Shown here one piece after another: positions 15,158 through 49,062 of a stretch of DNA of 64,000 bases. How positions within the stretch are numbered: the stretch's first letter is position 1; each line of letters begins with the position of its first letter. Made by a program: the position numbers and the translations under genes. The stretch lies in NCBI GenBank assembly GCA_964195995.1, contig CAXMQS010000088.1:10082-74081 (forward strand), read 5' to 3'. The notes below the pieces were generated by a model, which ran no database searches, was not told where the DNA came from, and saw only the letters and a list, made by a program, of their open reading frames with translations. Origin of the DNA: an uncultured Acidimicrobiia bacterium (GTDB lineage: Bacteria > Actinomycetota > Acidimicrobiia > Spongiisociales > JAOTWH01).

Positions 15158-16180
15158 CTAGTAGACGGAAATTCCGCTGCCCGCCCGCAGGCGTCCGATG
15201 ATGGCTGCTGGCTCACCGAGCTCAGCCACGATCGTCGCGGCACCGGCCTCATCGGTGGCGATGAGGAGGCCGCCACTGGTCTGAGCGTCGGCCAGCAAGA
15301 CCCTGTCGACCTCGTCTGTGGCTCCGAAGTCGGTGAACCCCTCTGCGAATGTCAGATTGCGCTTGGTTCCCCCTGGAACGAAACCCTCGACCACCAGTTG
15401 ACGGACCCCGGGAAGAAGCGGGACAGACGCGCTGTCGATGTCTGCTCCAAGCCCCGAAGCCGTAATGAGCTCTCCGAGGTGTCCGAGGAGCCCGAAGCCG
15501 GTGACGTCCGTGGCGGTTACCACGCCGACTCCCAGCATGGCATCTCGCGCCGCGGAATTGAGGGTTGCCATCCAGTCGGTAGCGAGTTTCTCGAGCTCGC
15601 CGTCGATGGCGCCACGCTTGAGCGCCGTCGAAACGATGCCGGTGCCTATCGGCTTGGTTAGCACAAGTACCTGGCCGGCGGTTCCGCCACGATTGGTGAC
15701 TATGCGGTTGGGGTGAACAGTTCCGGTAACGGCCAGACCGAACTTCGGCTCGGGATCATCGACAGAGTGACCACCGACGAGGGTGCACTGCGCGTCAACG
15801 AGGACACTGGCGGAGCCTGCCAGTACGTCGGTCAGCAGCTCGAAGGGGAGCGTGTCGCGTGGCCAGCCGACCATCTGCATCGCCGTCAACGGCGTTGCGC
15901 CCATCGCATAGATATCCGAGAGCGCGTTGACCGCGGCGATGCGACCCCAGTCGAACGCGTCGTCGACGATAGGGGTGAAGAAGTCAACCGATTGCACCAA
16001 CGCCACCTCGGCGTTCAACCGGTAGACCCCGGCGTCATCGGCGTTGTCGAGTCCGACCAAGAGGTCGGGATGTCGTATCGCCGGGTTGTTGTCCAAAGGG
16101 CGCAGAACCTGCGCCAACTCGTCAGGTGCGAGCTTGCACGCTCAACCGGCGCCGTGGGAGTAGGCCGTCAGCTTGACCAC
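15158..16180 (-). CDS. selD: selenide, water dikinase (selenophosphate synthetase), Sec-containing form
   Basis: Extended 63 nt beyond the tracked start: GTG 16180, then ..LTAYSHGAG-TGA(16144..16142)-ACKLAPDEL. This matches the E. coli SelD sequence LTQYSHGAGCGCK. AGGAGG lies 4 nt upstream of the GTG. Confidence 0.85.
16100..16114 (-). promoter_or_regulatory. candidate SECIS apical hairpin for selD
   Basis: GCGCAG-GUU-CUGCGC (6-bp stem) starts 27 nt after the UGA. Confidence 0.3.
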
Positions 16181-16304
16181 ATCACCTCCTCTTTGCGGCG
16201 GCGAGTGTACGGGTTCGACAAGAGCGCGAACGCTGACCCCTTGCTAAGGGTCGCGGAAGAGATACCATCGCTGCCAACGGGATGCCATCGTGTATCCGGT
16301 TCCA

Positions 16305-16396
16305 GGCACGGGCGTCTCCTCCTCCCCCTTGGAGACACCCGAAAGCCTCTGAAACAGGCCCTCTTCTCCCCCCCCTAGAGGGCCTGTTTCTCTGTC
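16305..16396 (+). ncRNA. 6C-like small RNA candidate (two hairpins with C-rich loops); strand not resolved
   Basis: Hairpin 1: 16311-16339, loop UCCUCCCCCUU. Hairpin 2: 16351-16390, perfect 13-bp stem, loop UUCUCCCCCCCCUA, followed by UCUCUGU. It lies in the selD/mgtE divergent spacer. Confidence 0.35.
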
Positions 16397-16516
16397 CGGA
16401 GAGGCTGAGAGCGGACCCTGCCAGAGGCCGACTTCATCGGCGTCGCTCATGTTCGAGGCTGACTCGGCCGGCTCGAAGCTCATAGCTTCATAGCTCATCG
16501 CTCCTAGCCTTACCCC

Positions 16517-17893
16517 ATGCGCTTGCGCCTCCGACGCCCCCGTGATCTAGCTGTCGCTCTTCGCGAGCTGGCGAGGCGCCGTCCCCGCGAGGCCGAGGGG
16601 TACCTAGAGGACCACGCCGAGGAGTGGGAATCCATGGCGGAAGCCGACCCGGCGACGGCGGCCGACATCCTGGAGGCCGTTGGGCAAGAGGCGACGGTCG
16701 ATCTGCTGACCGACCTGGACCCAACCGAAGCCGCCGAAGTGTTGTCTGAGATGCGCTTGGACGCCGCCGCCGAAGCTCTGACCGAGTTTCCCGGCGAGTT
16801 CTCGGCTCGCATTGTCGAGGCCATGAGCGCCGCCGAAGCCGCGGACGTCATCGGCGTCATCGACCCTGCCGACCGACCGAAGGTATTGGAGCAGGTCGCA
16901 GACAAGGCAACCGACGAAGTCCTGGCGTTGCTCGCCTATCCGCCGGACAGCGCAGGTGGTCTGATGACCACGGAGTTCGCCGCCATCCAGATCGGGCTCA
17001 CCGCTGGAGAAGCGATCGAGGCCCTGCGTCGTCTGCAGGAAGACGTAGGCCAGCTGACCTACGTCTACATCACTGATCACGACCAACGCCTCCACGGCGT
17101 GCTGTCCTTCCGCGACCTGGTCTTTGCCCGGCCGGGGACCGGTATCGACGAGGCGATGGTCGCCAACCCTGTCGCCGTCCGGCCCGAGACGGATCGCGAG
17201 GAGGTCGCCGAACTCATCCAGCGCTACGGGCTGCTGTCACTTCCTGTTGTCGACTTCCGAGGCCGGCTACTCGGCATCGTGACGGTCGACGAGATCCTCG
17301 AAGCAGTGCAGGAGGAAGCCGTAGAGGACATCGCCGTCATGGTTGGTGCCGGTGTAAGTGAAACCGTCCACACGACCGTCGCCCGCTCGGTACGCAATCG
17401 ATTCCCTTGGATCGTCGTCAACCTCGGCATCGCGTTCCTCGTCGCCGTCGTCGTTAGCCGTTTCGAACCGGTGATCTCACGCACTGCGGTACTTGCCGCA
17501 TACATGCCGGTAGTGGCAGCTGTCGGAGGCAACGGAGGGGCGCAGAGCCTGGCCATCGTCATCAGGGCCCTCGCCACCGGCGACCTGCCAGAACACCGCT
17601 CCCTCCGGGTTGTCGGCAACCAGGCGCTAATCGGAGCCATCAACGGCCTGGCGGTAGCCGCGACAGCCTCGATCATCGCCTTCATATTCACCGACTCGGC
17701 AGAGATCGCGTTCGTCATCGGAATCGCCGCCCTTGCCAACATGATCGCGGCAGGCGCCGCCGGAGCGGCCATACCGATGCTCTTGCAGAGGTACGGACAG
17801 GATCCGGCGCTGGCCTCGAACATCTTTCTTACGCTCGTCACCGACATCGTGGGCTTCGGAGGGTTCCTGGCCATCGCCACACTTCTGCTCTAG
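16517..17893 (+). CDS. mgtE: magnesium transporter MgtE
   Basis: MgtE N-domain, tandem CBS region and a C-terminal 5-TM domain with VGGNGGAQS. Confidence 0.9.
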   Translation: MRLRLRRPRDLAVALRELARRRPREAEGYLEDHAEEWESMAEADPATAADILEAVGQEATVDLLTDLDPTEAAEVLSEMRLDAAAEALTEFPGEFSARIVEAMSAAEAADVIGVIDPADRPKVLEQVADKATDEVLALLAYPPDSAGGLMTTEFAAIQIGLTAGEAIEALRRLQEDVGQLTYVYITDHDQRLHGVLSFRDLVFARPGTGIDEAMVANPVAVRPETDREEVAELIQRYGLLSLPVVDFRGRLLGIVTVDEILEAVQEEAVEDIAVMVGAGVSETVHTTVARSVRNRFPWIVVNLGIAFLVAVVVSRFEPVISRTAVLAAYMPVVAAVGGNGGAQSLAIVIRALATGDLPEHRSLRVVGNQALIGAINGLAVAATASIIAFIFTDSAEIAFVIGIAALANMIAAGAAGAAIPMLLQRYGQDPALASNIFLTLVTDIVGFGGFLAIATLLL

Positions 17894-25533: not shown

Positions 25534-28500
25534 CTAACGGTCCTGGGCGATGGCCACGAGATAGATCTTGCCGTTCTTGTACTCGAAGTGGGCCATCCAA
25601 GACCCGGTCACGCCGTCGCGGCCGAAGGACATGAAGTGGAAGTTGTGGAGCTCCGTCGGGATGAGTGCAGAGACGAGGATCGGCGTATCGATCGCAGGCT
25701 CGGGCGAGACGGCGGCGGCCGCCAGGAACGGCTCAGCGATGGCCTCGGTGAAGTCGACGCTATGGAAGGGGATGCTGCGGCCTGCCACGACCGCCTCGAT
25801 GTCCTGGGTCCGCACAACCACGGGCGAGCCCCCAAGACCAATAGCGAGTCCGCGCTCGCCGACGAGGGATCCGACTGATCCCTCGTCGGCGAAGGCGTTG
25901 CGCATCCGCTCGATGATGGCGCCAACCCTTTCGTCCTCGACGAACTCTTCGTCGGTGACCTGCTCTGTGAGGTAGTAGAAGTCCACCCAGCCGCTTCGGT
26001 CCCCGGCCTCGATCTCTATCCAGTCGATCCCTTCGAGTGGTCGCACCTTCGAGATAGCAACGATGTCGCGTGCCGTCGGACTGAGGTGGTGCCTGATCTT
26101 CGAGTCATCTCCCGGCTCTTCGTAGATCGGAAGCGAAGACTCGGGATCCCGCATGACGACGGCGTACAAGCGACGCTTGCCGCCGAGGAACGGAAGGATC
26201 CTGACTACGGAGCTCCAGCGGAATCCTCCAAGAAGCATCGACCACATCAGGGAGATCAACAACAGGATCAACGGAATCTGGAGCGTTTCGAGGCTCTGGA
26301 AGAAGGCACCCGTGAGCAGCTCGACGCCACTTGGCGCCAAAACCTCGATGCCGTCGGGCACGTCGAAGTTGATGAGGGGACTCCCGACTTCGTTCGATAG
26401 ATCGGTCGCAGTGTCGAATACGTCACGAGGCACGACGATGAAGATCGAGGACTCGTCAGTGCCGCCCTTGCCGTCAGAAGCGCGATAGGAAACCTCGATA
26501 CTCCCGAAGAAGCCCGGGTATGCCCGGAACGTGACGGTCCCGTCGGCATTGGCCACGAAAGACCCGTTGGAGTCGCTCCCGACGGAGGCCAGGATCAGGA
26601 AGTCGCCATCTGGGTCGATGTCGTTGGCGAGCACCTGGATGTTGACCTCGAAGTAGTCGTTCACGACAAGGAAGTCCTGCATGCCGACAGGCGGATCGTT
26701 GAGGGGGAACACCCGGACGTCGACCGCCGCCGAGGACGTGCCGCCGTTGCCATCGGAGATGGTGTACCTGAAGTGATCGATTCCGGTGTAGTTGTGGGCT
26801 GGCGTGTAGGTCACTTGCCCGCCGACATCGATGGTCAGGGTCCCGTGTTCGGCCGCAGTCACCGCGGTGACGAACAGGCTGTCACCGTCTGGGTCAGAGT
26901 CGTTGAGGGTGAGCTCGAAAGTCCCCGTCGAGTCCTCGTAGAGCACGTATGCGTCGTCGACCGCAAATGGCGGCTTGTTCTTGGCCTCGATCGACAGTGT
27001 CACCCTGACGGGCTCCGAGAAGGCGAGGCCGTCGAACACCCGGTAGGTGAAAGAGTCGTCGAAGTCGTTGTCGGCGCTATGCGCATAGGTGAACGAGCCG
27101 TCCGAATTGAGAGTCAGCGTCCCTCGGATCGGCAGGGCCTCGATGACAGAGGCGATCGGGTCGCCGTCTGGGTCCGTGTCGTTGGAGAGGACGCCTGGAG
27201 CGCCGATGACCATCGTGTCGTACTGGACCAAGTCGTAGTTGTCCGGAAGGCCCGTTGGCGGCCGATTGGTGTTGAGCACAGTGAGGCTGAAGGCGGTAGA
27301 TGCCGAGAGGCCTCCAGGGCCCGTGACCGTGACCGTGATCACGTAGACGCCGCTGTCGTCATACCCCGGAGTGCCGCTGATCAAGCCAGACGCCGGATCA
27401 ATCACCAGGAACGGAGGTAGTCCGATGGCCGAGAATGTCAAGGGGTCGCCGTTGATGTCACTCCCCGTCGCCGTGACGGCAAAGGGATCGATTTCGGAGA
27501 TCGTCGCATCCGGGATGGGATCGATGGCCGGCGGGTCGTTGACAGGAACCACGACGACGGTCACGTCCGCCCAGCCGCTCCAAGCCCCATCGTTGTCCTG
27601 TACCCGATAGGCGAAGGAGGTCGACCCGTTCCAATCGCCGACCGGGCTGAAGTCGAACGTGCCGTCGGCGTTGTTGGTGACGGTCCCGATGGTGCCGGTG
27701 TCGTCGAGCTGCACGGAAGGCGCGAGCAGCGTCCCATCGATGTCGGAGTCGTTGCCGAGGACGCCTCCGGTGGTGAACGGGACGTCCTCGGGTGTGTTGA
27801 ATGCCGGGCCCGAGTCGTCGACAGCGATTGGCGGATCGTTGACATCGCCTACCGTGACGCTGACCGACGCCCAGTTGGACCAGGCTCCAATGTCATCCTG
27901 AACGCGATAGTCGAACGAGGTGGTGCCGTTCCAGTCGGCTGCCGGACTGAAGTCGAAGGTCCCATCGGCGTTGTTGATGACGGTTCCGATGGTGCCGGTG
28001 ACATCGAGCTGTACCGAAACCGGGACCAGCGTGCCGTCGATGTCGGAATCATTGCCGAAAACGTCTCCGGTGGTGAAGGGCGTGTCCTCCAGGGTGTTGA
28101 AGGCGGGACCCGAGTCGTCGATCGCCACCGGTGCGTCGTTGACCCCAGTGACGGTGATGGTCACAGTGGCGGTGTTGGAGACACCAGAGTGGGAGTCGGT
28201 GGCTCGGTAGGTGAAGGTGATGTCACGGTCCTCGCCCAGCGCCAGGTCCTGGAAGTCGGTGCCGGGATCGAAGTCGAAGGTGCCGTTGACCGCACCCAGG
28301 GCCGCGGCGCCTTCACCGACACCCGGTGGGGTGACAATGGCGTAGACCAAGGTGGTGGGATCGTCGTCGGAGTCGACGTCGTTGGAGTCGAATGACCCAG
28401 TGACGACGGGGCCATCTTCGGTGGCGTTGTCAGAGACGTCTTGGGACACCGGTGCGTCGTTGACCCCAGTGACGGTGATGGTCACAGTGGCCCAATTCGA

Positions 28501-31500
28501 CCAGTCACCATCGTCGTCCTTAACCCGGTAGTCGAAAGTAGTGGTCCGGCTGTCGCCAACGGCCAAGTCGTGGTAGCTAGCACCGGGGTCGAAGTCGAAA
28601 GTGCCGTTGGCGTTGTTGGCGACAGTGCCCACCGTCGCCGCGTCGTCCAGCTCGACGGAGGATGGATCGAGGATGCCGTCTGTGTCGAAATCGTTACTGA
28701 GTACGTCTGCCGTCGTGAACGACGTGTCCTCGTCCGTGCTGAAGCCAGCCGGTCCAGGATCGTCAACCGCCGTAGGCGGATCGTTGATGTCGTTCACCGT
28801 GATGCGGAACACCTGCGTCGGCGAGGTGTTGTCGTTGGGCGCAGGCGCACCGAGGCCCGAGTCAACCAACTCGATAGTTATGTCGGCAAATCCACTCAAT
28901 GCCGGTGTCGGCGTGAACGTCAGCGTTCCGGTCGGCGACAGTGCAGGGCCCACCGAGAACAGGCCGGGGTTGGTGTTCGTAACGATGTTGAAGCTGACCG
29001 TCTGCGGCGGCACCTCATCCGGTGGCCCCTCCAAGATGGCAGTGGCCCAAGCCACGAAGGTCTGCGGTGGTGCATCCTCAGCTACAACGACGTCGGCACC
29101 CTTGGTGAACGACGGCTCATCGTTGATGGCGGTGATGGTGATGTTGAAGGTCTGGGTCGGTGACACGTTGTCGTTGGGTGGGACGTTGGATCCCGAGTCG
29201 GTGAGGTAGATGTCGACCGAGGTGGTGCCGTTGGCGTTGGCCGCAGGGGTGAAGGTCAGGTTGCCAGTGGCGGGGTCGACCGCCGGCTGGGTGCTGAACA
29301 GGGCGGGGGTGGCTGCGGTGACGGTGAAGGTCAGGATCTGTGCCGACTCGTCGGCGGGACCCTCGGTGATGCCAGTAGCCCAGCCACCACCCAACAGGTA
29401 GGCGCCGGAGTCCTCGTCCACAGTGACATCGGCACCCTTGGTGAACGACGGCTCATCGTTGACGGCATCGATGGTGATGTTGACGGTCGCAGTGTCGGTA
29501 AGTAGACCGTCCGATACCGTGTAATCGAAGGTGTCGCTCCCGTTGAAATCGCCAGGAGGGTCGTACACGAGTTCGTCGTCGGTCGGGTCGCCAGGCGTGC
29601 CCATGACGTCGAGGGAGATCGTTCCTCCGTTGGCGGAGACAGCATCGAAGCTGTCTATCTGCAGGGCATCGATGTCGGCATCGGTGTCGTTCGCCATGAC
29701 GTCGACGTTGACTGCTGTGTCCTCATTCGTAGATGGGGTGTCGTCGTTTGCGATCGGTGCAACGTTGACGTTGCGGTTCGGCCCGAATTCCGAGGTGTCC
29801 TTGGTCACTGAATCAACTGATATCGCCGATGCCGAATCACCAGCAGCCAGGGCCGCCGTTACGAACGGCCCCCAATTGCCGAGGCCGTCGGCCGTAACGA
29901 AACCGAGGTACTCGACTCCCTCGCCGAAATCCGAACCGCTCAGCGTGTCTCCGAGCCCGGCAACGGCCCGATAGATCTCGACCCGCGAGTTGGGGCATGC
30001 CAAGCCGCTCATAGTCGTGGTCCCTGTGACAAGCACAGCACTCGTGATCAGCGGCGAGTCCGTGCCGAGGTTGCCGTCGCCGACGACGGTGCCGCAGGTA
30101 TTGGCGACCGAGCTATCTCCAAGAAGGATGCCATCGTTGGGGGTGATGCCGTCGCCGGTCGCCGTGCTACCCCCGGCAGCCACTAAATCGATGGCCGGAC
30201 CACCGTTGCTACCGAAGTCGTTGCGCGTCACCTCATTGCTGATTGCAGCATCAGACACGATTACTCCGGGACCGACATTGCCGGTAAGGACATTGAGTCG
30301 AACGGTGTTGCCGTCATCGTTGACTCGGATAGCGCCCGTCTGAACGGCGCGTTGCCCAGACCCGGTAATGGTGTTGTTCTCGATCAGCGTTCCGGTCATC
30401 GTTCCGTCGATACCCATCGCTCCAGAGTCGACTATGAGATTCCCACTGATCGTCCCACCGGAGCTGCCGCCGCCGTGGTTGATGCCATCTGCAATGGTGT
30501 CAACCTGGCCCGACTCCCTTACCTCGTTGCCTGAGATAGTGGTGCCGGTTGTGTCCGACGCGACGATGGCGTCGTTGTCCAAGAAGCCGATGAGGTTGTT
30601 GCGCACGCTCGCGCCATCGGTCTCCCTGAGGTAGACGCCCCGCAGCGTGCTGACAACAAGGGGGTCAACGAACCCATCCGGTGCTGAACCGATGACGTTG
30701 CGTTCGATGATGATCCCACTGGGCCTCATGAGCGGTACGCCGGCCATGTCAATGCCTCCAGCGAATCCCCAGGTGGCGAGATCGCGGATGGTGTAGTTGT
30801 CGGGAATCTGACCGGTGCTGGCATTCGAGGAGAAGGAGAACCCAACACCTATGCCCGAATCAGATCGCATCACTCCGAGCTCGGGCTTGGCGACTTGAGG
30901 CAAGGCCACCGGGCCTGCACCTACGTTCATGCCACCTGCGGCATTGGCTCCCAGAGAACCCAAGTTGGTGTCGCGAACCGTGACGCCGTCCGTCAGGTCG
31001 AATGCAGTGCCGTCGATGGTTGTATCTGCGTCGTGAGTGTCGGCCAGGGTCTCACCGACAGCACTGCCGGTGTAGTCGATCTCCCACCATTTATTGAGGC
31101 CGGGGAGATCGTCGGCGTTGGTGGGAACCGCCGGGACGAACCGCATGGCGTTGCCGAGGTTGATGGCGTTGGCATTGCGAATGAACTGATCAAGCGAACC
31201 CTGATATGAGCTCGCCGTGTAGCCGGCCGCCCACGCGGGCTCGAGATTCGTGACTACGTTGAAGCTGAAGCCGAAGTCGACAGATGCCACCCCGCCCGAC
31301 ACGCTCACCCTGGCAATGTGCTCAGCGGTAGTCAGGCCAGAAGCGTCATCATCGGTGGCTCCATCGACGCCTCCAAAGCAGGGTCCGACCCCCATCCGCT
31401 CCGCCGTGCCACCGAGCCCATCCGCGCACCAGCCTCCGTTCGGTCCGTAGGTCTGCTCGGCCCACGGCGTTGTCGAGAGGTAGGAAGCATGGATACCAGC

Positions 31501-33402
31501 AGATGGAGAGACGGTGAGAGAATCCACAACCACCCAGTAGTCGACCGGCAGCCCTGCCGTGAGGGTGTAGCTGCCGCCCGCCCCGGTTACAGCCGTGTCG
31601 ACCAACGTGTCAGCACCGTCGGGAATTGCGTTGCCGTTGTCCTGGTAAAGGCGGACGTCAACTCCGGCCCGACCCGGGTTGGCGCCGTCGCCGATGGCCT
31701 CGGCCCCGGGGAGCAGGTTGCCGTCAACATCCTCAAACACTGTCCCTGCGATCTGGCATCCTGAAAGATCGCTGGTCGAATTCGAAACCGAGGTCTGCCG
31801 GTAGCCGGCGATCGCCGAAGGGACCACCGCGGTCTGGGTGGTTTCGCCGGTCGGGAACTGGGCCTGGACGATGTAGGCACGGTCGGAGCCGAGGGGAAGT
31901 CCGAAGTGGACGGCCAGTGGATCTTGCGAGCCGTGACCTCGCCCACCGTTCACGTCCCGCACGCCGCTCAGAGCCGTCACCCCGTCACATGCGAAGAGCT
32001 GCAAGGTGGCTCCGACCGCGTCACGGTTCAGCCCCCCGCCGAGGTCATGGAGAGCCCGCACGAACATGTAGTCGATCGCCCCGGTTTGGACTGCGTCGTT
32101 ACGCCACAGTTCGTTGGCCGCTGCCGTTTGGCTGATGAGAACGTCGAGGTCACCGTCGTTGTCGTAGTCGGCGAACGACGCCCCTTCGCCATCACCCGCT
32201 CCGCCGACAAAGGTATTGGCTCCAAAGGTGATCGACCCGGGAGTCGAGGTGTTCGTATACAGGAGATCACCGGCGATAGTGTCGGTGAGAAATAGATCCA
32301 GGTCGCCATCATTATCGGTGTCACCACAGGCGGCACCATCGATGATGCTGCCCCCCGGGACGACCGGCACTCCGGTGGCGGTGAACGTGCCGACCGGTCC
32401 CTGCCGGTAGACCTGAGTCGTTGGGTGGTCGGTCCAGATGATGTCGAACAGCCCGTCGTCATCGAAATCGCAGAAGGCGACTGCTCCTTTGTTGGTGTTG
32501 AGGACGGCCACATCAAACCCACCCGCCACGAACGAACCACCGGTGTTCGCCCACAGGTCGACAAGGCCCTCCTTGCGCCCGAGGATGTCGACGTCACCGT
32601 CGCCATCGAAGTCTCCGACGGCGGAGTAGTCGCCGGAGGCGGCCACTTCCGGGAGACCGATCCCGTTGGGATCGCCGTTGGGGGTCCACCAGGTGAACGT
32701 GCCGGTGCCGTCGTTGTCCCACAGGTCGATGCCGAAGTCGTGGTTATCCATGATGATGTCGAGGTCGCCGTCGCCGTCGTAGTCGAGCAGGCCACCACCC
32801 TCCAGGTTGAAACCGCTAAGGGCGTCTGGCATGTCCAGCAGCACCACCGGGTTGCCTCCCGCATCACCGAAACCGTACGGTGGCACTCCGGCCGGGCCCT
32901 TGTTTATCCACACCGACAGGCGGGTGATCGCCTGGGTGATGAGGTCGACATGCCCATCGTTGTTGACGTCACCCCACACCACCTGCCGCCGATCATCAAC
33001 CCCTGCCAAGTTGGGCGTAGCGAGGCCGGGGGCATGAGTTGCCGTGACGTTCACGAACGAGGGGTTGGGGAGGCTGCAGTCGCTCCGGTAGAGCTGGGTG
33101 TACTGGTCAGGCCCGACCGGGTTTTCGGTGGTGACGATTACGTCGAGGCACCCGTCCTCGTTGAAGTCGGCCCAGGCCAGGCCGGCGTCCTTGATGCCAA
33201 CCGTTTCGAGACCCACCGGAGTTGCCGCGAACGCGGCGAAGGCCGCAGGAGCCACCAGAGTCAGGTTGCCGAGGGCGATCGTAAGAGCCGCGAACAGGGC
33301 GAACGGGCGCTCTATCCCCTTGGCGAAACGAACCCCCCTAGAGCGCGGTGAGGGCCCGGGCGTAGCCGGGCCAGGATCTGAGGTGAGTCTTACCCATCTC
33401 AT
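25534..33402 (-). CDS. giant (2,622 aa) single-pass surface protein: FG-GAP/VCBS + ASPIC/UnbV, SdrD-B-like, parallel beta-helix, ~11 cadherin/Ig-like modules, TM, cytoplasmic SH3-like tail
   Basis: Signal-like N-terminus. Repeated DxDGDGDxD FG-GAP motifs. NRDAVGA..GSQDPLAVHFGL is UnbV_ASPIC-like. ISGN/IENN beta-helix turns. Repeated VNDAP/VNDPP-bounded modules. TM segment LQIPLILLLISLMWSMLLGGF. Confidence 0.9.
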   Translation of the reverse strand: MRWVRLTSDPGPATPGPSPRSRGVRFAKGIERPFALFAALTIALGNLTLVAPAAFAAFAATPVGLETVGIKDAGLAWADFNEDGCLDVIVTTENPVGPDQYTQLYRSDCSLPNPSFVNVTATHAPGLATPNLAGVDDRRQVVWGDVNNDGHVDLITQAITRLSVWINKGPAGVPPYGFGDAGGNPVVLLDMPDALSGFNLEGGGLLDYDGDGDLDIIMDNHDFGIDLWDNDGTGTFTWWTPNGDPNGIGLPEVAASGDYSAVGDFDGDGDVDILGRKEGLVDLWANTGGSFVAGGFDVAVLNTNKGAVAFCDFDDDGLFDIIWTDHPTTQVYRQGPVGTFTATGVPVVPGGSIIDGAACGDTDNDGDLDLFLTDTIAGDLLYTNTSTPGSITFGANTFVGGAGDGEGASFADYDNDGDLDVLISQTAAANELWRNDAVQTGAIDYMFVRALHDLGGGLNRDAVGATLQLFACDGVTALSGVRDVNGGRGHGSQDPLAVHFGLPLGSDRAYIVQAQFPTGETTQTAVVPSAIAGYRQTSVSNSTSDLSGCQIAGTVFEDVDGNLLPGAEAIGDGANPGRAGVDVRLYQDNGNAIPDGADTLVDTAVTGAGGSYTLTAGLPVDYWVVVDSLTVSPSAGIHASYLSTTPWAEQTYGPNGGWCADGLGGTAERMGVGPCFGGVDGATDDDASGLTTAEHIARVSVSGGVASVDFGFSFNVVTNLEPAWAAGYTASSYQGSLDQFIRNANAINLGNAMRFVPAVPTNADDLPGLNKWWEIDYTGSAVGETLADTHDADTTIDGTAFDLTDGVTVRDTNLGSLGANAAGGMNVGAGPVALPQVAKPELGVMRSDSGIGVGFSFSSNASTGQIPDNYTIRDLATWGFAGGIDMAGVPLMRPSGIIIERNVIGSAPDGFVDPLVVSTLRGVYLRETDGASVRNNLIGFLDNDAIVASDTTGTTISGNEVRESGQVDTIADGINHGGGSSGGTISGNLIVDSGAMGIDGTMTGTLIENNTITGSGQRAVQTGAIRVNDDGNTVRLNVLTGNVGPGVIVSDAAISNEVTRNDFGSNGGPAIDLVAAGGSTATGDGITPNDGILLGDSSVANTCGTVVGDGNLGTDSPLITSAVLVTGTTTMSGLACPNSRVEIYRAVAGLGDTLSGSDFGEGVEYLGFVTADGLGNWGPFVTAALAAGDSASAISVDSVTKDTSEFGPNRNVNVAPIANDDTPSTNEDTAVNVDVMANDTDADIDALQIDSFDAVSANGGTISLDVMGTPGDPTDDELVYDPPGDFNGSDTFDYTVSDGLLTDTATVNITIDAVNDEPSFTKGADVTVDEDSGAYLLGGGWATGITEGPADESAQILTFTVTAATPALFSTQPAVDPATGNLTFTPAANANGTTSVDIYLTDSGSNVPPNDNVSPTQTFNITITAINDEPSFTKGADVVVAEDAPPQTFVAWATAILEGPPDEVPPQTVSFNIVTNTNPGLFSVGPALSPTGTLTFTPTPALSGFADITIELVDSGLGAPAPNDNTSPTQVFRITVNDINDPPTAVDDPGPAGFSTDEDTSFTTADVLSNDFDTDGILDPSSVELDDAATVGTVANNANGTFDFDPGASYHDLAVGDSRTTTFDYRVKDDDGDWSNWATVTITVTGVNDAPVSQDVSDNATEDGPVVTGSFDSNDVDSDDDPTTLVYAIVTPPGVGEGAAALGAVNGTFDFDPGTDFQDLALGEDRDITFTYRATDSHSGVSNTATVTITVTGVNDAPVAIDDSGPAFNTLEDTPFTTGDVFGNDSDIDGTLVPVSVQLDVTGTIGTVINNADGTFDFSPAADWNGTTSFDYRVQDDIGAWSNWASVSVTVGDVNDPPIAVDDSGPAFNTPEDVPFTTGGVLGNDSDIDGTLLAPSVQLDDTGTIGTVTNNADGTFDFSPVGDWNGSTSFAYRVQDNDGAWSGWADVTVVVVPVNDPPAIDPIPDATISEIDPFAVTATGSDINGDPLTFSAIGLPPFLVIDPASGLISGTPGYDDSGVYVITVTVTGPGGLSASTAFSLTVLNTNRPPTGLPDNYDLVQYDTMVIGAPGVLSNDTDPDGDPIASVIEALPIRGTLTLNSDGSFTYAHSADNDFDDSFTYRVFDGLAFSEPVRVTLSIEAKNKPPFAVDDAYVLYEDSTGTFELTLNDSDPDGDSLFVTAVTAAEHGTLTIDVGGQVTYTPAHNYTGIDHFRYTISDGNGGTSSAAVDVRVFPLNDPPVGMQDFLVVNDYFEVNIQVLANDIDPDGDFLILASVGSDSNGSFVANADGTVTFRAYPGFFGSIEVSYRASDGKGGTDESSIFIVVPRDVFDTATDLSNEVGSPLINFDVPDGIEVLAPSGVELLTGAFFQSLETLQIPLILLLISLMWSMLLGGFRWSSVVRILPFLGGKRRLYAVVMRDPESSLPIYEEPGDDSKIRHHLSPTARDIVAISKVRPLEGIDWIEIEAGDRSGWVDFYYLTEQVTDEEFVEDERVGAIIERMRNAFADEGSVGSLVGERGLAIGLGGSPVVVRTQDIEAVVAGRSIPFHSVDFTEAIAEPFLAAAAVSPEPAIDTPILVSALIPTELHNFHFMSFGRDGVTGSWMAHFEYKNGKIYLVAIAQDR
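26430..29770 (-). repeat. in-gene tandem array of ~290-320-nt modules encoding cadherin/Ig-like domains
   Basis: 27541-27840 and 27841-28140 align in register with a 300-nt period. An exact 45-nt repeat occurs at 28126-28170 and 28447-28491. Confidence 0.75.
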
Positions 33403-45407: not shown

Positions 45408-46000
45408 CGGGTCCCGATCCCAAGCAGTGCGAGAGCGACGACGGCGGCGAACAGATCGTTCGGAATGACCAGCCGCATGAGCTGGCGACCGTCGACGATC
45501 CATTCGCCATCGGTTCCAACCCCGACCGTGTCGAGGTAGCGCCAGATAGCCCACACGCAGAAGACTCCGATGGCGACCGCCGTCCCGCTCGCCGCGGCAG
45601 ACCCCCAGCGCCGACGAGCGCCGATAGCCGCGGCTGCTACCACCCAGGCGATGTCAAGCGCGCTCAACAGCTGCAGAAACTGCATGGATGAATCGAACCG
45701 GAGTGCCGCTGAGCTGGCCAGTGTCACCAAGGCTGCCGCTCCTGTAACGAGAGCAACCACCGAACCCGCCGCCGCCAGGGATCGGAAAGGCTCTGCCAGG
45801 TCGGGGAACCACCCAGGCTCGTCGGCGATCGGCGCCAGAGTGAGGGCCACACCTACCTCAAAGACAACGACGGCGGAGAGGTGCCAAGTCGAAACCGCGA
45901 TGACGTGGTCCGCGGCATCGATCGCGAGCAGCGGTAGGGCGAGCACTGCTCCGAAGACAGTCCACCGCAACGCCGTTGCCAGCACCCGCTCGGCCGACAT
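45374..46000 (-). CDS. polytopic membrane protein of unknown function
   Basis: ~6 hydrophobic helices. Its ATG shares one base with the upstream stop (TGATG). Confidence 0.6.
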   Translation of the reverse strand: MSAERVLATALRWTVFGAVLALPLLAIDAADHVIAVSTWHLSAVVVFEVGVALTLAPIADEPGWFPDLAEPFRSLAAAGSVVALVTGAAALVTLASSAALRFDSSMQFLQLLSALDIAWVVAAAAIGARRRWGSAAASGTAVAIGVFCVWAIWRYLDTVGVGTDGEWIVDGRQLMRLVIPNDLFAAVVALALLGIGTRYRTVQASPQS

Positions 46001-46347
46001 CAGTCTCCTCTGGGGTGTTCACCGAAGATGGCGTGCGGACCAGCTGCCCCCGCCGCGTAGAAGAGGTCGAAGCGCCTCCCCGACGCCGACGGTTCTATGC
46101 ACTTGAGCACTCCCGCCATGAACTGATCGATGAGATGGGAATCAGCGAAGCGGTCCGCTGTCTCCTGATCTTCGAACTGGGTGATGATGGAGACGCGGGC
46201 AGGATTGATGTCATCGAGGAGCACGGAGTGGTGAGTCGGAGCGTCGGGGTGGGCCAGAGCCGCTCGCTCCCACTGCTGCACCGCGTTGACGAAGTCCTGC
46301 ATCCCGCCGTCGGCAACCGTGCATTCGATGATCTCAATGCATCGCAT
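46000..46347 (-). CDS. ABM-like (dimeric alpha+beta barrel) small protein
   Basis: IIECTV..G..DFVNAV....SIITQFEDQETADRF follows the ABM-domain pattern. Weak call. Confidence 0.5.
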   Translation of the reverse strand: MRCIEIIECTVADGGMQDFVNAVQQWERAALAHPDAPTHHSVLLDDINPARVSIITQFEDQETADRFADSHLIDQFMAGVLKCIEPSASGRRFDLFYAAGAAGPHAIFGEHPRGD

Positions 46348-46366: not shown

Positions 46367-47227
46367 CTAGTCCTTAGTTGGCTGCGCGATTCGCTCGCGA
46401 GCGAGTTCCACGTAACCGGCATCCGTGTCATAGCCAACGAAGTGCCGTCCAGTTTCGAGCGCCGCCAGCGCAGTGGCCCCAGCACCCATGAAAGGGTCGA
46501 GCACGAGATCGCCCGTGAACGTGTACAGCTCAATGAGACGGCGTGGCAGCTCGACCGGGAACGGCGCAGGGTGACCAACCCGTTTGGCCGACTCGGGACG
46601 GATGTTCCACACCGACAGAGTCGATGAGACGAAGTCGTCCTTTTCGATCGTGTCATCGCCCTTGCGGATACGACGGAAGGTCTCCTTGCAGCCTACGACG
46701 ACGTACTCGTGGACGTCCCGTAGCGTTGGGTTCTTCGCCGACTGCCAAGATCCCCACGCCGTCGATCCCCCGGCCGCCTTGGCCTTCTGCCAGATAATCT
46801 CGCCTCGCAAGAGGAAACCAACGTCCGTTAGCAATCCAGCAACGTGGTGGTTGAGCGGCAGGTAAGGCTTGCGGCCGAGATTGGCAACATTGACGGCCAC
46901 CCTCCCGCCGGGTTCAAGCACCCGATAGGTCTCGGCCAGCACCCTCTTGAGGAGTTCCAGATACTCGGACAGGCTGAGGTCGGCGTCGTAATCCTTGCCG
47001 ACGTTGTATGGAGGCGAGGTCACCATGAGGGAAACGCAGTTGTCGGGGATCTGCAACATCGATTCGGATGATTGATGAAACAGCTCGTCGATGATCGCAG
47101 GTGGCGGATCGACGAGAGGGCTCAGTTCCTTGGCTTCGGCCTGTACTGCGATCTTGCGCTCGTAGAACTCGGAAGCGTCGTGGCTCTCGCGTTTGCCCGA
47201 GCCAAAGGACGAGGTCGAGGTCGGCAT
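46367..47227 (-). CDS. beta-class DNA methyltransferase (N4-cytosine or N6-adenine; TSPPY variant)
   Basis: Motif IV TSPPYNVGKDY precedes motif I LDPFMGAGATA. Sampled lines are ~50-58% GC, against 63-73% in sampled neighbouring lines. Confidence 0.85.
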   Translation of the reverse strand: MPTSTSSFGSGKRESHDASEFYERKIAVQAEAKELSPLVDPPPAIIDELFHQSSESMLQIPDNCVSLMVTSPPYNVGKDYDADLSLSEYLELLKRVLAETYRVLEPGGRVAVNVANLGRKPYLPLNHHVAGLLTDVGFLLRGEIIWQKAKAAGGSTAWGSWQSAKNPTLRDVHEYVVVGCKETFRRIRKGDDTIEKDDFVSSTLSVWNIRPESAKRVGHPAPFPVELPRRLIELYTFTGDLVLDPFMGAGATALAALETGRHFVGYDTDAGYVELARERIAQPTKD

Positions 47228-47270
47228 GGCGGAAACCGTACCAGCGCCAGGGGCGAGCCGTAGGCCATAA

Positions 47271-47333
47271 GACGCAGGACGCAGGACGCAGGACGCAGGA
47301 CGCAGGACGCAGGACGCAGGACGCAGGACGCAG
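47271..47333. repeat. perfect heptanucleotide microsatellite (GACGCAG)x9, followed by a degenerate GAGGAGC unit
   Basis: Counted directly from the sequence. Its proximal end is 43 nt upstream of the methyltransferase ATG. Confidence 0.95.
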
Positions 47334-47625
47334 GAGGAGCCTTGACTTGTCGCACGGAGGCCTGGCGTCTCTCCCCCCGTAGGTGGGAGTACCGGCGAAG
47401 CCGGGGAGGGGGGCTTCTTGGTGGGCGCGTATCTACGGGAGCCGCCTCCGCCTTCACGCCCTCCGGACGCTCCGCCTAGGGGGGAGGAAACAAGACCGGC
47501 CGACCAGCGGTTGCTGGCAAAGCCGTAGGCCCCATCGGACGGCCGATGGCGGTCCCGCTTGAGGCTTGAGCGTTACAGCAGCCCAAGGCTCAAAGCACAC
47601 AGCTTCTGCAGTAGCTTTTCCCCCA

Positions 47626-49062
47626 ATGATCACCGCCTTCACCGACACACCTTCCTGGGTGCCGGACGCCGTCTTCTATCAGATCTTCCCCGATCGCTTC
47701 GCCCGCTCCGACCGTGTTACCAAAAGCCGGAACCTCGAGGAGTGGGATGCCACCCCGACCCATCATGGATTCAAGGGTGGCGATCTCGGGGGTGTTATCG
47801 AGCATCTCGACCACATCATCGACCTCGGAGCCAACGCCATCCTGTTCAACCCGATCTTCCAATCGGCGTCGAATCACCGCTACCACGCACACGACTACTA
47901 CAAGATCGACCCGCTCCTCGGTGACGAAGCCCTCTTCGACGAGATGCTGGCGGCCTGCCACGAGCGCGGCATCAGGGTCGTTCTGGACGGCGTCCTCAAC
48001 CACTGCTCTCGCGGATTCTTCCAGTTCAACGACATCCTCGAGAACGGACCCCAGTCGCCGTACATCGACTGGTTCGACATCAAGGAATTCCCCATCTACC
48101 CGTACCACCCGTCGCAGGCGGAGGACCCCAACTACGAGTCATGGATCGGCCTCCCGGCGCTGCCCGAGTTCAACATAAGGAACCCTGACGTGAGGGAGTA
48201 CATCTTCGGTGTGGTCGAGTACTGGACTCGCAAGGGCATCGATGGCTGGCGGCTCGATGTTGCCCACGAGATCACCGAACCCGGCTTCTGGCAGGAGTTC
48301 CGTCGCCGCGTCAGAGAGATCAACCCCGAGGCCTACATCGTTTCGGAGATCTGGCAGGATTCTTCGGCCTGGATAAACGATCGAGAGCAGTTCGACGGCA
48401 CCATGAACTACCTCTTCACGGGGAACGCACTGTCGTTCGCGGCGGGACGTCACCTGGATGAGACGACGGTTCTCGACCAGGTGCCCTGGCCGAATACGCC
48501 TCCCATGGACGCGATGGCCTTTTCCGCCGCGGTTGACCGCATCCGCGCCCTGTACACCGATCAGGCGACGCTCGGCAACCTCAACTGCTTCGCTAGCCAC
48601 GACACCGCGCGAACATTGACCATTGTTGGAAAGGATGAGGCTGCAGTGCGCCTCACGCTTCTCCTTGTGCTGTCGTTTCCGGGCGCCGCTCACATCTACT
48701 ACGGAGACGAGATCGGCCTCGAAGGCCACAATGATCCGCTATCACGCAACGCGATCCCCTGGGACGACGCTGCTGACTGGAACCACGGGCTGTTGGAGTC
48801 ATACAGGGAGCTGATTGCGCTGCGCGTCGCCAAGCCAGCCATGCGGAGTCTCCCCTACCGAACGCTGTTAGCAGAGGGTCTCGTCTACGCCGTCGAGCGC
48901 GGCGAGGGAGACGATCGGGTGGTCGTCATCGTCAATGCCGGCGATGACGAGGCGGCACTGGACCTCGGCCTCGCCGCAGAACCGTTGTGGGGATCGGCAA
49001 CGGTTTCGGGCACGAGCATCACCATCCCTCGTCGCTCAGGTGCGGTGTTCGGCATCGAGTAA
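47626..49062 (+). CDS. GH13 alpha-amylase-family glycosidase (neopullulanase/alpha-glucosidase-like)
   Basis: ATG 47626 gives MITAFTDTPSWVPDAVFYQIFPDRF. Conserved regions DGVLNH, GWRLDVAHE, SEIW and FASHDT. Confidence 0.9.
   Translation: MITAFTDTPSWVPDAVFYQIFPDRFARSDRVTKSRNLEEWDATPTHHGFKGGDLGGVIEHLDHIIDLGANAILFNPIFQSASNHRYHAHDYYKIDPLLGDEALFDEMLAACHERGIRVVLDGVLNHCSRGFFQFNDILENGPQSPYIDWFDIKEFPIYPYHPSQAEDPNYESWIGLPALPEFNIRNPDVREYIFGVVEYWTRKGIDGWRLDVAHEITEPGFWQEFRRRVREINPEAYIVSEIWQDSSAWINDREQFDGTMNYLFTGNALSFAAGRHLDETTVLDQVPWPNTPPMDAMAFSAAVDRIRALYTDQATLGNLNCFASHDTARTLTIVGKDEAAVRLTLLLVLSFPGAAHIYYGDEIGLEGHNDPLSRNAIPWDDAADWNHGLLESYRELIALRVAKPAMRSLPYRTLLAEGLVYAVERGEGDDRVVVIVNAGDDEAALDLGLAAEPLWGSATVSGTSITIPRRSGAVFGIE

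Follow-up and report, generated by a model that had tools for sequence, protein, structure and literature searches.

A perfect heptanucleotide array upstream of an apparently orphan DNA methyltransferase gene in Acidimicrobiia is probably an ordinary microsatellite of a lineage-wide repeat class

The stretch of DNA analyzed here, called the window, spans 64 kb of an Acidimicrobiia genome and contains a perfect heptanucleotide tandem array in the non-coding DNA between two divergent genes, one for a DNA methyltransferase and the other for a GH13 alpha-amylase-family protein. Tandem Repeats Finder placed the array at 47271..47335 and reported (GACGCAG)x9.3 on the plus strand with period 7, 100% matches and a score of 130, the top score among the short-period arrays of the window; in the sense of the methyltransferase gene it reads (CTGCGTC)n. 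Together with direct reading of the bases, this result bears out the nine perfect 7-mers described in the initial annotation. The degenerate tenth unit also listed there was not recovered, as after nine units only GA stays in register and the following GGAGC mismatches. The array had been described as intergenic with its end 43 nt from the methyltransferase ATG (47227), and the distance is exactly 43 nt (47228..47270). The 14-mer GACGCAGGACGCAG, a dimer of GACGCAG, occurs eight times, all inside the array, against 0.05 occurrences expected from dinucleotide-preserving shuffles, and it is absent from the rest of the window and from the 167 related loci searched (designated below by L numbers). 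Among about 35 perfect arrays found in about 1.1 Mb, the GACGCAG array is the longest. The single strands of the array showed no folding (-2.8 kcal/mol, not better than shuffles), and a structural role of the repeat DNA as a hairpin or G4 was rejected, the array being without hairpin or quadruplex potential.

Short-read assemblers can mis-size tandem repeats, and in the Logan assembly of run ERR13301390 the contig stops after 30 nt of repeat, which is where an assembly with k=31 must break. Contigs of this run, which come from the same strain and were found by look-up of both flanking proteins, restart at window position 47390. However, the Logan contig carries the same promoter-to-array junction followed by at least 4.3 units, so the array is not an artifact of one assembly, with the reservation that this run is possibly also the source of the window. 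The 65-nt array is moreover shorter than typical reads, and similar arrays are found in many independent assemblies. We therefore regard it as very unlikely that an assembler created the repeat or its copy number. A metagenome scan for the array/promoter junction gave 0 matches, and hence recovered no copy-number alleles.

The methyltransferase gene (46367..47227, minus strand) encodes a stand-alone Type II enzyme of 286 aa that matches PF01555 (E=6e-42) and the PADLOC MTase_II model (E=1.6e-102). Motif IV (TSPPY) is N-terminal and motif I (DPFMGAGAT) is C-terminal, which is the beta-class order. Among solved structures, 2zie, a putative modification methylase from Thermus, is the nearest, and N4-cytosine methyltransferases come next. 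The SPPY motif is typical for N4-cytosine methyltransferases, and the window enzyme is probably one of these. An exact look-up of the protein returned no identical record; orthologues at 65-77% identity are present in hundreds of Acidimicrobiia MAGs and metagenome contigs, and homologues have lengths of 283-295 aa and share the N-terminus MPTSTSSFG. Orthologues with about 60% identity were also seen in low-GC Desulfomonilaceae, Syntrophaceae and Thermodesulfobacteriota MAGs (loci L053-L080 and L142-L167), and the methyltransferase family therefore spans phyla. These low-GC genes are preceded by a TTGACN(17)TAnnnT-type promoter and a structured-looking leader.

The divergent GH13 gene (47626..49062, plus strand; PF00128, E=1e-61), with its start about 290 nt away from the array, carries a separate -10-like hexamer, TAGCTT, 8 nt upstream of the ATG; its synteny with the methyltransferase gene is also found in L085 and L086. 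Directly downstream of the methyltransferase gene lies a conserved gene for a hypothetical protein of 115 aa (46000..46347, minus strand), which is syntenic in L082, L085 and L168 and gave no Pfam, NCBIfam or PADLOC match and no nuclease signature. In the window and its close relatives, the genes on the side opposite GH13 encode this hypothetical protein, a membrane protein of 208 aa and a DUF547 protein. A search of the neighbors for a restriction partner using Pfam, NCBIfam and PADLOC identified no nuclease or defense match, and no compositional island was detected. The methyltransferase is thus apparently a conserved orphan Type II enzyme, and not a Type III mod or Type I hsd protein. It resembles the CcrM-type orphan methyltransferases in the PF01555 domain, the beta class, the lack of an adjacent nuclease and the class-wide conservation. 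However, the match to the CcrM equivalog model reached 60.6 bits against a cut-off of 830, motif IV is SPPY, and the C-terminal CcrM domain is absent.

The position of the array relative to the coding sequence was considered next to the possibility of a translated repeat that extends the methyltransferase at its N-terminus, in which case a change in copy number would shift the frame and result in intragenic phase variation. Upstream of the ATG, the reading frame indeed runs without a stop across the array and as far as at least 47500, but at 64% GC chance alone is expected to give long open frames, and no ATG, GTG or TTG was found in this frame upstream of the ATG. Because the upstream frame has no start codon and the homologues begin at the same Met, the array is not translated. 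The upstream "peptide" is, in addition, not conserved in L001, the closest relative. The missing start codons and the common homologue start effectively refute the extension, and we give it practically no chance of being correct. As the array lies outside the ORF, its unit length is irrelevant to the reading frame.

Between the array and the ATG lies a conserved core promoter segment of 43 nt (47228..47270, minus strand), which on the gene strand ends in CTTATGGCCTACGGCTCGCCCCTGGCGCTGGTACGGTTTCCGCC directly before the ATG. It is near-identical in L001 (41/43 bases) and closely similar in L084, whereas the sequence upstream of it is entirely different. The segment contains an extended -10-like element, TGgTACGGT (47235..47243, minus strand), in which the TG is at 47243..47242 and the hexamer at 47240..47235, giving the start context TACGGT-TTCCGCC-ATG. 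The -10-like hexamer noted in the initial annotation, 7 nt before the ATG, is therefore present, and it belongs to a conserved type, as a TAC[CG]GT-type hexamer was found within 80 nt upstream of the gene in 105/117 high-GC orthologous loci. A scan with the sigma-70 consensus found no promoter, as expected with actinobacterial promoters, and the -10 assignment consequently comes from comparative conservation. On this basis, TG-n-TAC[CG]GT most likely functions as an extended -10 promoter. Actinobacterial extended -10 promoters depend little on upstream sequence.

The same comparison makes the previously suggested leaderless mRNA plausible. No Shine-Dalgarno sequence precedes the methyltransferase ATG, and throughout the clade of the window (the window, L001, L081 and L083-L086) TAC[CG]GT is located 6-8 nt from the ATG without a Shine-Dalgarno sequence, which is the arrangement expected of leaderless genes (TANNNT ending 6-8 nt before the start). 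In other, more distant clades, TAC[CG]GT is found 17-30 nt upstream of the start and is followed by AGGAGG. The hexamer close to the ATG in one clade, as opposed to a leader with AGGAGG elsewhere, suggests that the clade of the window lost its leader. Leaderless genes are known in actinobacteria, and a leaderless methyltransferase mRNA would agree with this. With the A of the ATG counted as +1, which would also be the transcription start, the array spans about -44 to -108. It is separated from the -10 hexamer by 30 nt and begins about 7 nt past the -35 position, so its earlier placement at or just upstream of the -35 zone holds. Since the array is outside both the ORF and the -10/-35 spacer, it is not needed by the basic promoter.

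A further feature of the promoter was observed in a subset of relatives. In 28/117 high-GC orthologous loci, a consensus DnaA-box 9-mer (TGTGGATAA or TGTGGACAA, complement of TTATCCACA) abuts the conserved -10 element. These boxes lie 30-52 nt upstream of the methyltransferase start and account for 28/35 such 9-mers in 950 kb (loci L013, L018, L021, L029, L034, L035, L037, L038, L050, L051, L056, L099, L101, L104, L107, L109, L115, L121-L123, L127, L130, L132-L135, L137 and L139). This placement suggests DnaA or cell-cycle control of the orphan methyltransferase in one Acidimicrobiia subclade, and the possible cell-cycle coupling is a further likeness to CcrM. The promoter of the window methyltransferase itself has no DnaA box, in which it differs from the CcrM-type systems.

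On the other side of the array, a spacer of 265 nt (47336..47600), which is common to the window and L001 (flanks 91% identical), holds a palindromic REP/MITE-like element of about 115 nt (47362-47490) with GC-rich terminal inverted repeats, CTCCCCCCGTAGGTGGGAG ... CTCCGCCTAGGGGGGAG. The arms of the element are CTCCCCCC at 47371-47378 and GGGGGGAG at 47479-47486, and an inner hairpin, GGTACTCCCACCTACGGGGGGAG, is located at 47371-47393 on the minus strand. The element is kept in L001 and is single-copy within the window. Related hairpin units (GGTACTTCCCCCAGAGGGGGAAG) are found upstream of the methyltransferase gene in L083 and as five tandem 40-nt units in L084. Rfam and tRNA scans of the whole window at gathering thresholds gave no match, and a permissive Rfam scan of 47150-47700 gave one chance-level match only (E=4.4). 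When the 265-nt spacer was folded, the z-scores were only marginal (-1.9 and -2.3), and therefore no structured RNA is claimed.

The site occupied by the array was then compared across the clade with at least 85% methyltransferase identity. In L001, an Acidimicrobiia MAG with methyltransferase identities of 99% for the protein and 95.8% for the DNA, both flanks are present and 22 unrelated bases replace the array. The comparison of copy number among relatives proposed in the initial annotation thus yielded presence versus absence only, between species-level relatives, with L001 being without the array. In L084 (89% protein identity), five tandem hairpin units of about 40 nt (GGGTACTTCCCCCAGAGGGGGAAGGGTCCTCCTGCGCTC, positions 190-405) abut the core promoter, and L085 (89% protein identity) has two different imperfect heptamer arrays about 110-170 nt upstream. 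Still other sequence is found at the site in L081-L083 (96-97% protein identity). The entire spacer between the methyltransferase gene and its divergent neighbor in L086 measures 64 nt, and nothing farther upstream is therefore required for basal expression in that genome; together with the missing array in L001, this indicates that the array is dispensable for expression. The stretch just upstream of the 43-nt core is hypervariable and repeat-rich, and by this comparison the GACGCAG array is lineage-specific and young. The observation of zero substitutions in the 65-nt array has a probability of about 0.05 if the array has been static since the split from L001, and this purity implies either recent birth or continuing slippage. 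As separate observations, the hairpin of the L084 type occurs as a single copy in L083 and, diverged, in the window and L001, and a linker in L084, TCCTCCTGCGCTC, resembles the seed of the heptamer in the window. The heptamer arrays upstream of the methyltransferase in L085 (2830-2895; 89% identity) and L123 (8450-8576; 69% identity; L124 is the same contig) are both of a GCGA(A/G)TT type, and each is preceded by a roughly inverse-complementary array of the CGCTTCT or CTTCGCC type. Shared descent, transfer and convergence are candidate origins of this likeness.

The same relatives bear on the idea that the array is a set of binding sites for a regulator, or of GACGC/GCGTC methylation targets of the adjacent enzyme, which would result in autoregulation. 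Nine identical GACGC sites within 63 bp beside a promoter would suit such a role, and three units amount to 21 bp, or two helical turns. However, these sites are absent in L001, the GACGCAG dimer is confined to the array within the window and the 167 loci searched, and the unrelated units found upstream of orthologues that are 67-89% identical misfit a conserved binding or target motif. We consider an array of target sites improbable.

In order to place the array among the tandem repeats of its lineage, perfect arrays with at least 3 copies and at least 18 nt were counted in 1.31 Mb of related Acidimicrobiia loci. Period 7 accounted for 25/30 of these arrays, and the others had periods of 6 (2 arrays), 3 (1), 9 (1) and 15 (1); in the first 858 kb, the count was 15/20. 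The period-7 arrays are nearly all non-coding and are found in tandem, divergent and convergent (3'/3') spacers, with diverse units that include GACGCAG, GTCCCTC, AGTCAGG and TCCATCA, among others. Turnover between relatives is evident at orthologous sites, which hold (ACTGGCT)x3.7 in L034 versus (GACTGGG)x6.6 in L115, (AATACGG)x4.1 in L118 versus about 2 copies in L120, and different heptamer units in L029 and L109. In the non-coding DNA of this lineage, tandem repeats thus have period 7 by default, without being specific to methyltransferase genes, and with such a lineage-wide bias the presence of a non-triplet microsatellite next to a gene carries no special meaning here. Two orthologous compound clusters were also seen (L034:280-400 and L115:3619-3744), in which three different heptamer arrays share a spacer and both units and copy numbers have changed. 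The spacer of the L034 cluster is convergent by GC3-based gene calls, and the clusters are similar to the short tandemly repeated heptamer clusters of cyanobacteria. Another period-7 array is present in the window just upstream of mgtE, a degenerate AGCTCAT x4.4 at 16477-16508.

These arrays share the features of the intergenic heptanucleotide SSRs of other bacteria. According to PMC4679880 and PMC4692102, which cite Mrazek 2007, bacterial SSRs show an excess of heptameric repeats, for which polymerase slippage is the suggested cause, and Actinobacteria are among the genomes richest in 5-11-nt repeats. Examples there include the long SSRs of Mrazek et al. 2007, the heptamers of Calothrix and Nostoc, GGGAATC in Xanthomonas and TAACTGA in Beggiatoaceae (PMC4692102, PMC4679880). 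In those bacteria as in this lineage, 7-nt units are arranged head-to-tail, mostly in intergenic DNA and with period 7 dominant, copy number and sequence vary between close relatives, and a slippage origin is proposed; the GACGCAG array shows the head-to-tail pure copies and the non-coding site, and its lineage the period-7 excess and rapid turnover. In contrast to the known cases, the units in this lineage are very diverse, with no dominant motif, and are not G-quadruplex-forming, and the host belongs to the high-GC Acidimicrobiia, for which the reviews PMC4692102 and PMC4679880 describe no such repeats.

Period-7 arrays are nevertheless somewhat more frequent near this gene than elsewhere. 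In L020, L041, L043, L085, L112 and L123 (6/122 other lineages), the 300 nt preceding the orthologue contain heptamer arrays, with unrelated units such as GGTGTCT, TCCATCA, GTTCACA and GCGAGTT upstream of orthologues at 67-89% identity. Upstream regions of the methyltransferase make up 9.1% of the non-coding DNA, yet they provide 6/23 of the non-coding array-bearing regions, an enrichment of about 2.9-fold (one-sided binomial p=0.015, calculated post hoc against a non-coding background defined by crude gene calls from a GC3-based heuristic). The window was left out of this count to avoid ascertainment bias. The enrichment is suggestive but modest and may hint at selection or a local mutational peculiarity; the view that heptamer arrays are specific to methyltransferase upstream regions was downgraded once the counts were normalized to non-coding DNA. 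The arrays overlap the -35 zone in L020 and L043 and are about 100 nt off in L085, and the array-to-(-10) distances, which range between about 9 and about 100 nt, show no conserved architecture.

The initial annotation had interpreted the array as a non-triplet SSR beside a methyltransferase gene and therefore as the hallmark of a phasevarion. Phasevarions, which involve Type III mod or Type I hsd systems in Neisseria, Haemophilus, Helicobacter, Moraxella and Mycoplasma, do resemble the window in having an SSR beside a DNA methyltransferase gene. In phasevarions, however, the ORF normally contains the repeat and is switched by frameshift, or switching takes place by hsdS inversion. The array in the window lies neither in the methyltransferase ORF nor in the -10/-35 spacer but 43 nt upstream of the start and upstream of the -35 zone, and the enzyme is a stand-alone PF01555 protein of the Type II beta class and not the product of a Type III mod, Type I hsdM/hsdS or Type IIG R-M gene. 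As period-7 arrays are also lineage-wide and the array is absent in the closest relative, the interpretation was not sustained in this form, and the array suggests a phasevarion only weakly.

A different way in which the array could act is as a contingency locus or rheostat, in which slippage by 7-bp units shifts and rotates the upstream DNA relative to RNA polymerase and thereby varies methyltransferase expression. The shifted DNA could be an activator site, an UP-like contact or the REP-like element, and the result would be phasevarion-like epigenetic subpopulations. The array does lie directly upstream of a promoter, the putative start site of which is placed by the conserved -10 element, with 43 nt between the array and the ATG and about 7 nt between the array and the -35 position. 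Its purity suggests ongoing slippage, and unrelated heptamer arrays recur upstream of six orthologues, reaching the -35 zone in two of them. Haemophilus influenzae provides precedents in the 7-bp promoter repeats of hmw1A/hmw2A and in a (CAAG)32 tract, which in strain F3031 is 58 bp upstream of an adenine methylase homologue (PMC2651432). The hmw1A/hmw2A repeats, about 10-40 heptanucleotide copies located 70-110 bp upstream of the start codon (Dawid et al. 1999 via PMC2651432), would be the closest demonstrated mechanistic analogue of such a rheostat; like the window, these genes have a heptanucleotide array in the promoter region, and there the copy number grades expression, as described in the same paper. 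However, for hmw1A/hmw2A both the variation and its effect on expression have been demonstrated, for surface adhesins of a host-adapted pathogen (PMC2651432), whereas the gene in the window is a conserved orphan methyltransferase of an environmental bacterium.

Several further observations argue against a rheostat. An array that is neither in the ORF nor between -10 and -35 faces an extended -10 promoter, which should tolerate upstream change. The array is missing in the closest relative and heptamer arrays are missing in 116/122 orthologues, the array-to-(-10) distance is inconsistent, and the same type of array is found in spacers without a promoter. The host is an environmental, free-living bacterium, in which the gene has the character of a core-like orphan methyltransferase rather than of an R-M mod gene. 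We therefore consider a contingency role of this array possible but unlikely. The broader proposal, that heptamer arrays have been repeatedly recruited beside the promoter of the orphan methyltransferase as copy-number rheostats that make epigenetic subpopulations, appears doubtful and still less probable.

We favor, as the probable explanation, an ordinary microsatellite generated by slippage and belonging to the lineage-wide period-7 class, any effect of which would be incidental and not that of a dedicated switch. The array would have grown from a short CCTGCGTC-like seed in the hypervariable stretch next to the methyltransferase core promoter, and recent expansion by slippage would have produced a young heptanucleotide microsatellite. 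The methyltransferase would be expressed from the extended -10 element TGgTACGGT, probably as a leaderless mRNA. As its purity suggests, the array is probably unstable in length, with slippage likely to be ongoing. Any change in methyltransferase output would then be a side effect of the spacing or helical phase of the upstream DNA, which would change in 7-bp steps.

If the array is an ordinary microsatellite, perfect repeats of a non-triplet unit next to genes do not by themselves mark contingency loci in Acidimicrobiia. The heptamer bias with diverse units would then be a high-GC actinobacterial case of an unexplained bacterial phenomenon, and it could help test whether polymerase slippage favors 7-nt units. 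If the array is instead a rheostat, methyltransferase phase variation would extend to environmental Actinomycetota and to a conserved orphan enzyme. Repeated recruitment of such rheostats would make this the first phasevarion-like system in free-living high-GC Actinomycetota, operating via promoter geometry and not frameshift. Either of these minority readings, if true, would be of real interest for bacterial epigenetics.

Two other features of the window are worth recording. Upstream of the mgtE Mg2+ transporter gene (16517-17893) lies a non-coding leader of 400 nt (16118-16516) with a strong terminator-like hairpin at about 16356-16393, CAGGCCCTCTTCTCCCCCCCCTAGAGGGCCTG. This leader gave no Rfam match at gathering thresholds and could be an unrecognized Mg2+-responsive leader. 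Finally, a giant ORF of 2622 aa on the minus strand (25534-33402) encodes FG-GAP, beta-helix and many Big_9 and cadherin-like domains and includes a 300-nt DNA repeat present in 1.8 copies (27596-28143); its product is a probable surface adhesin.
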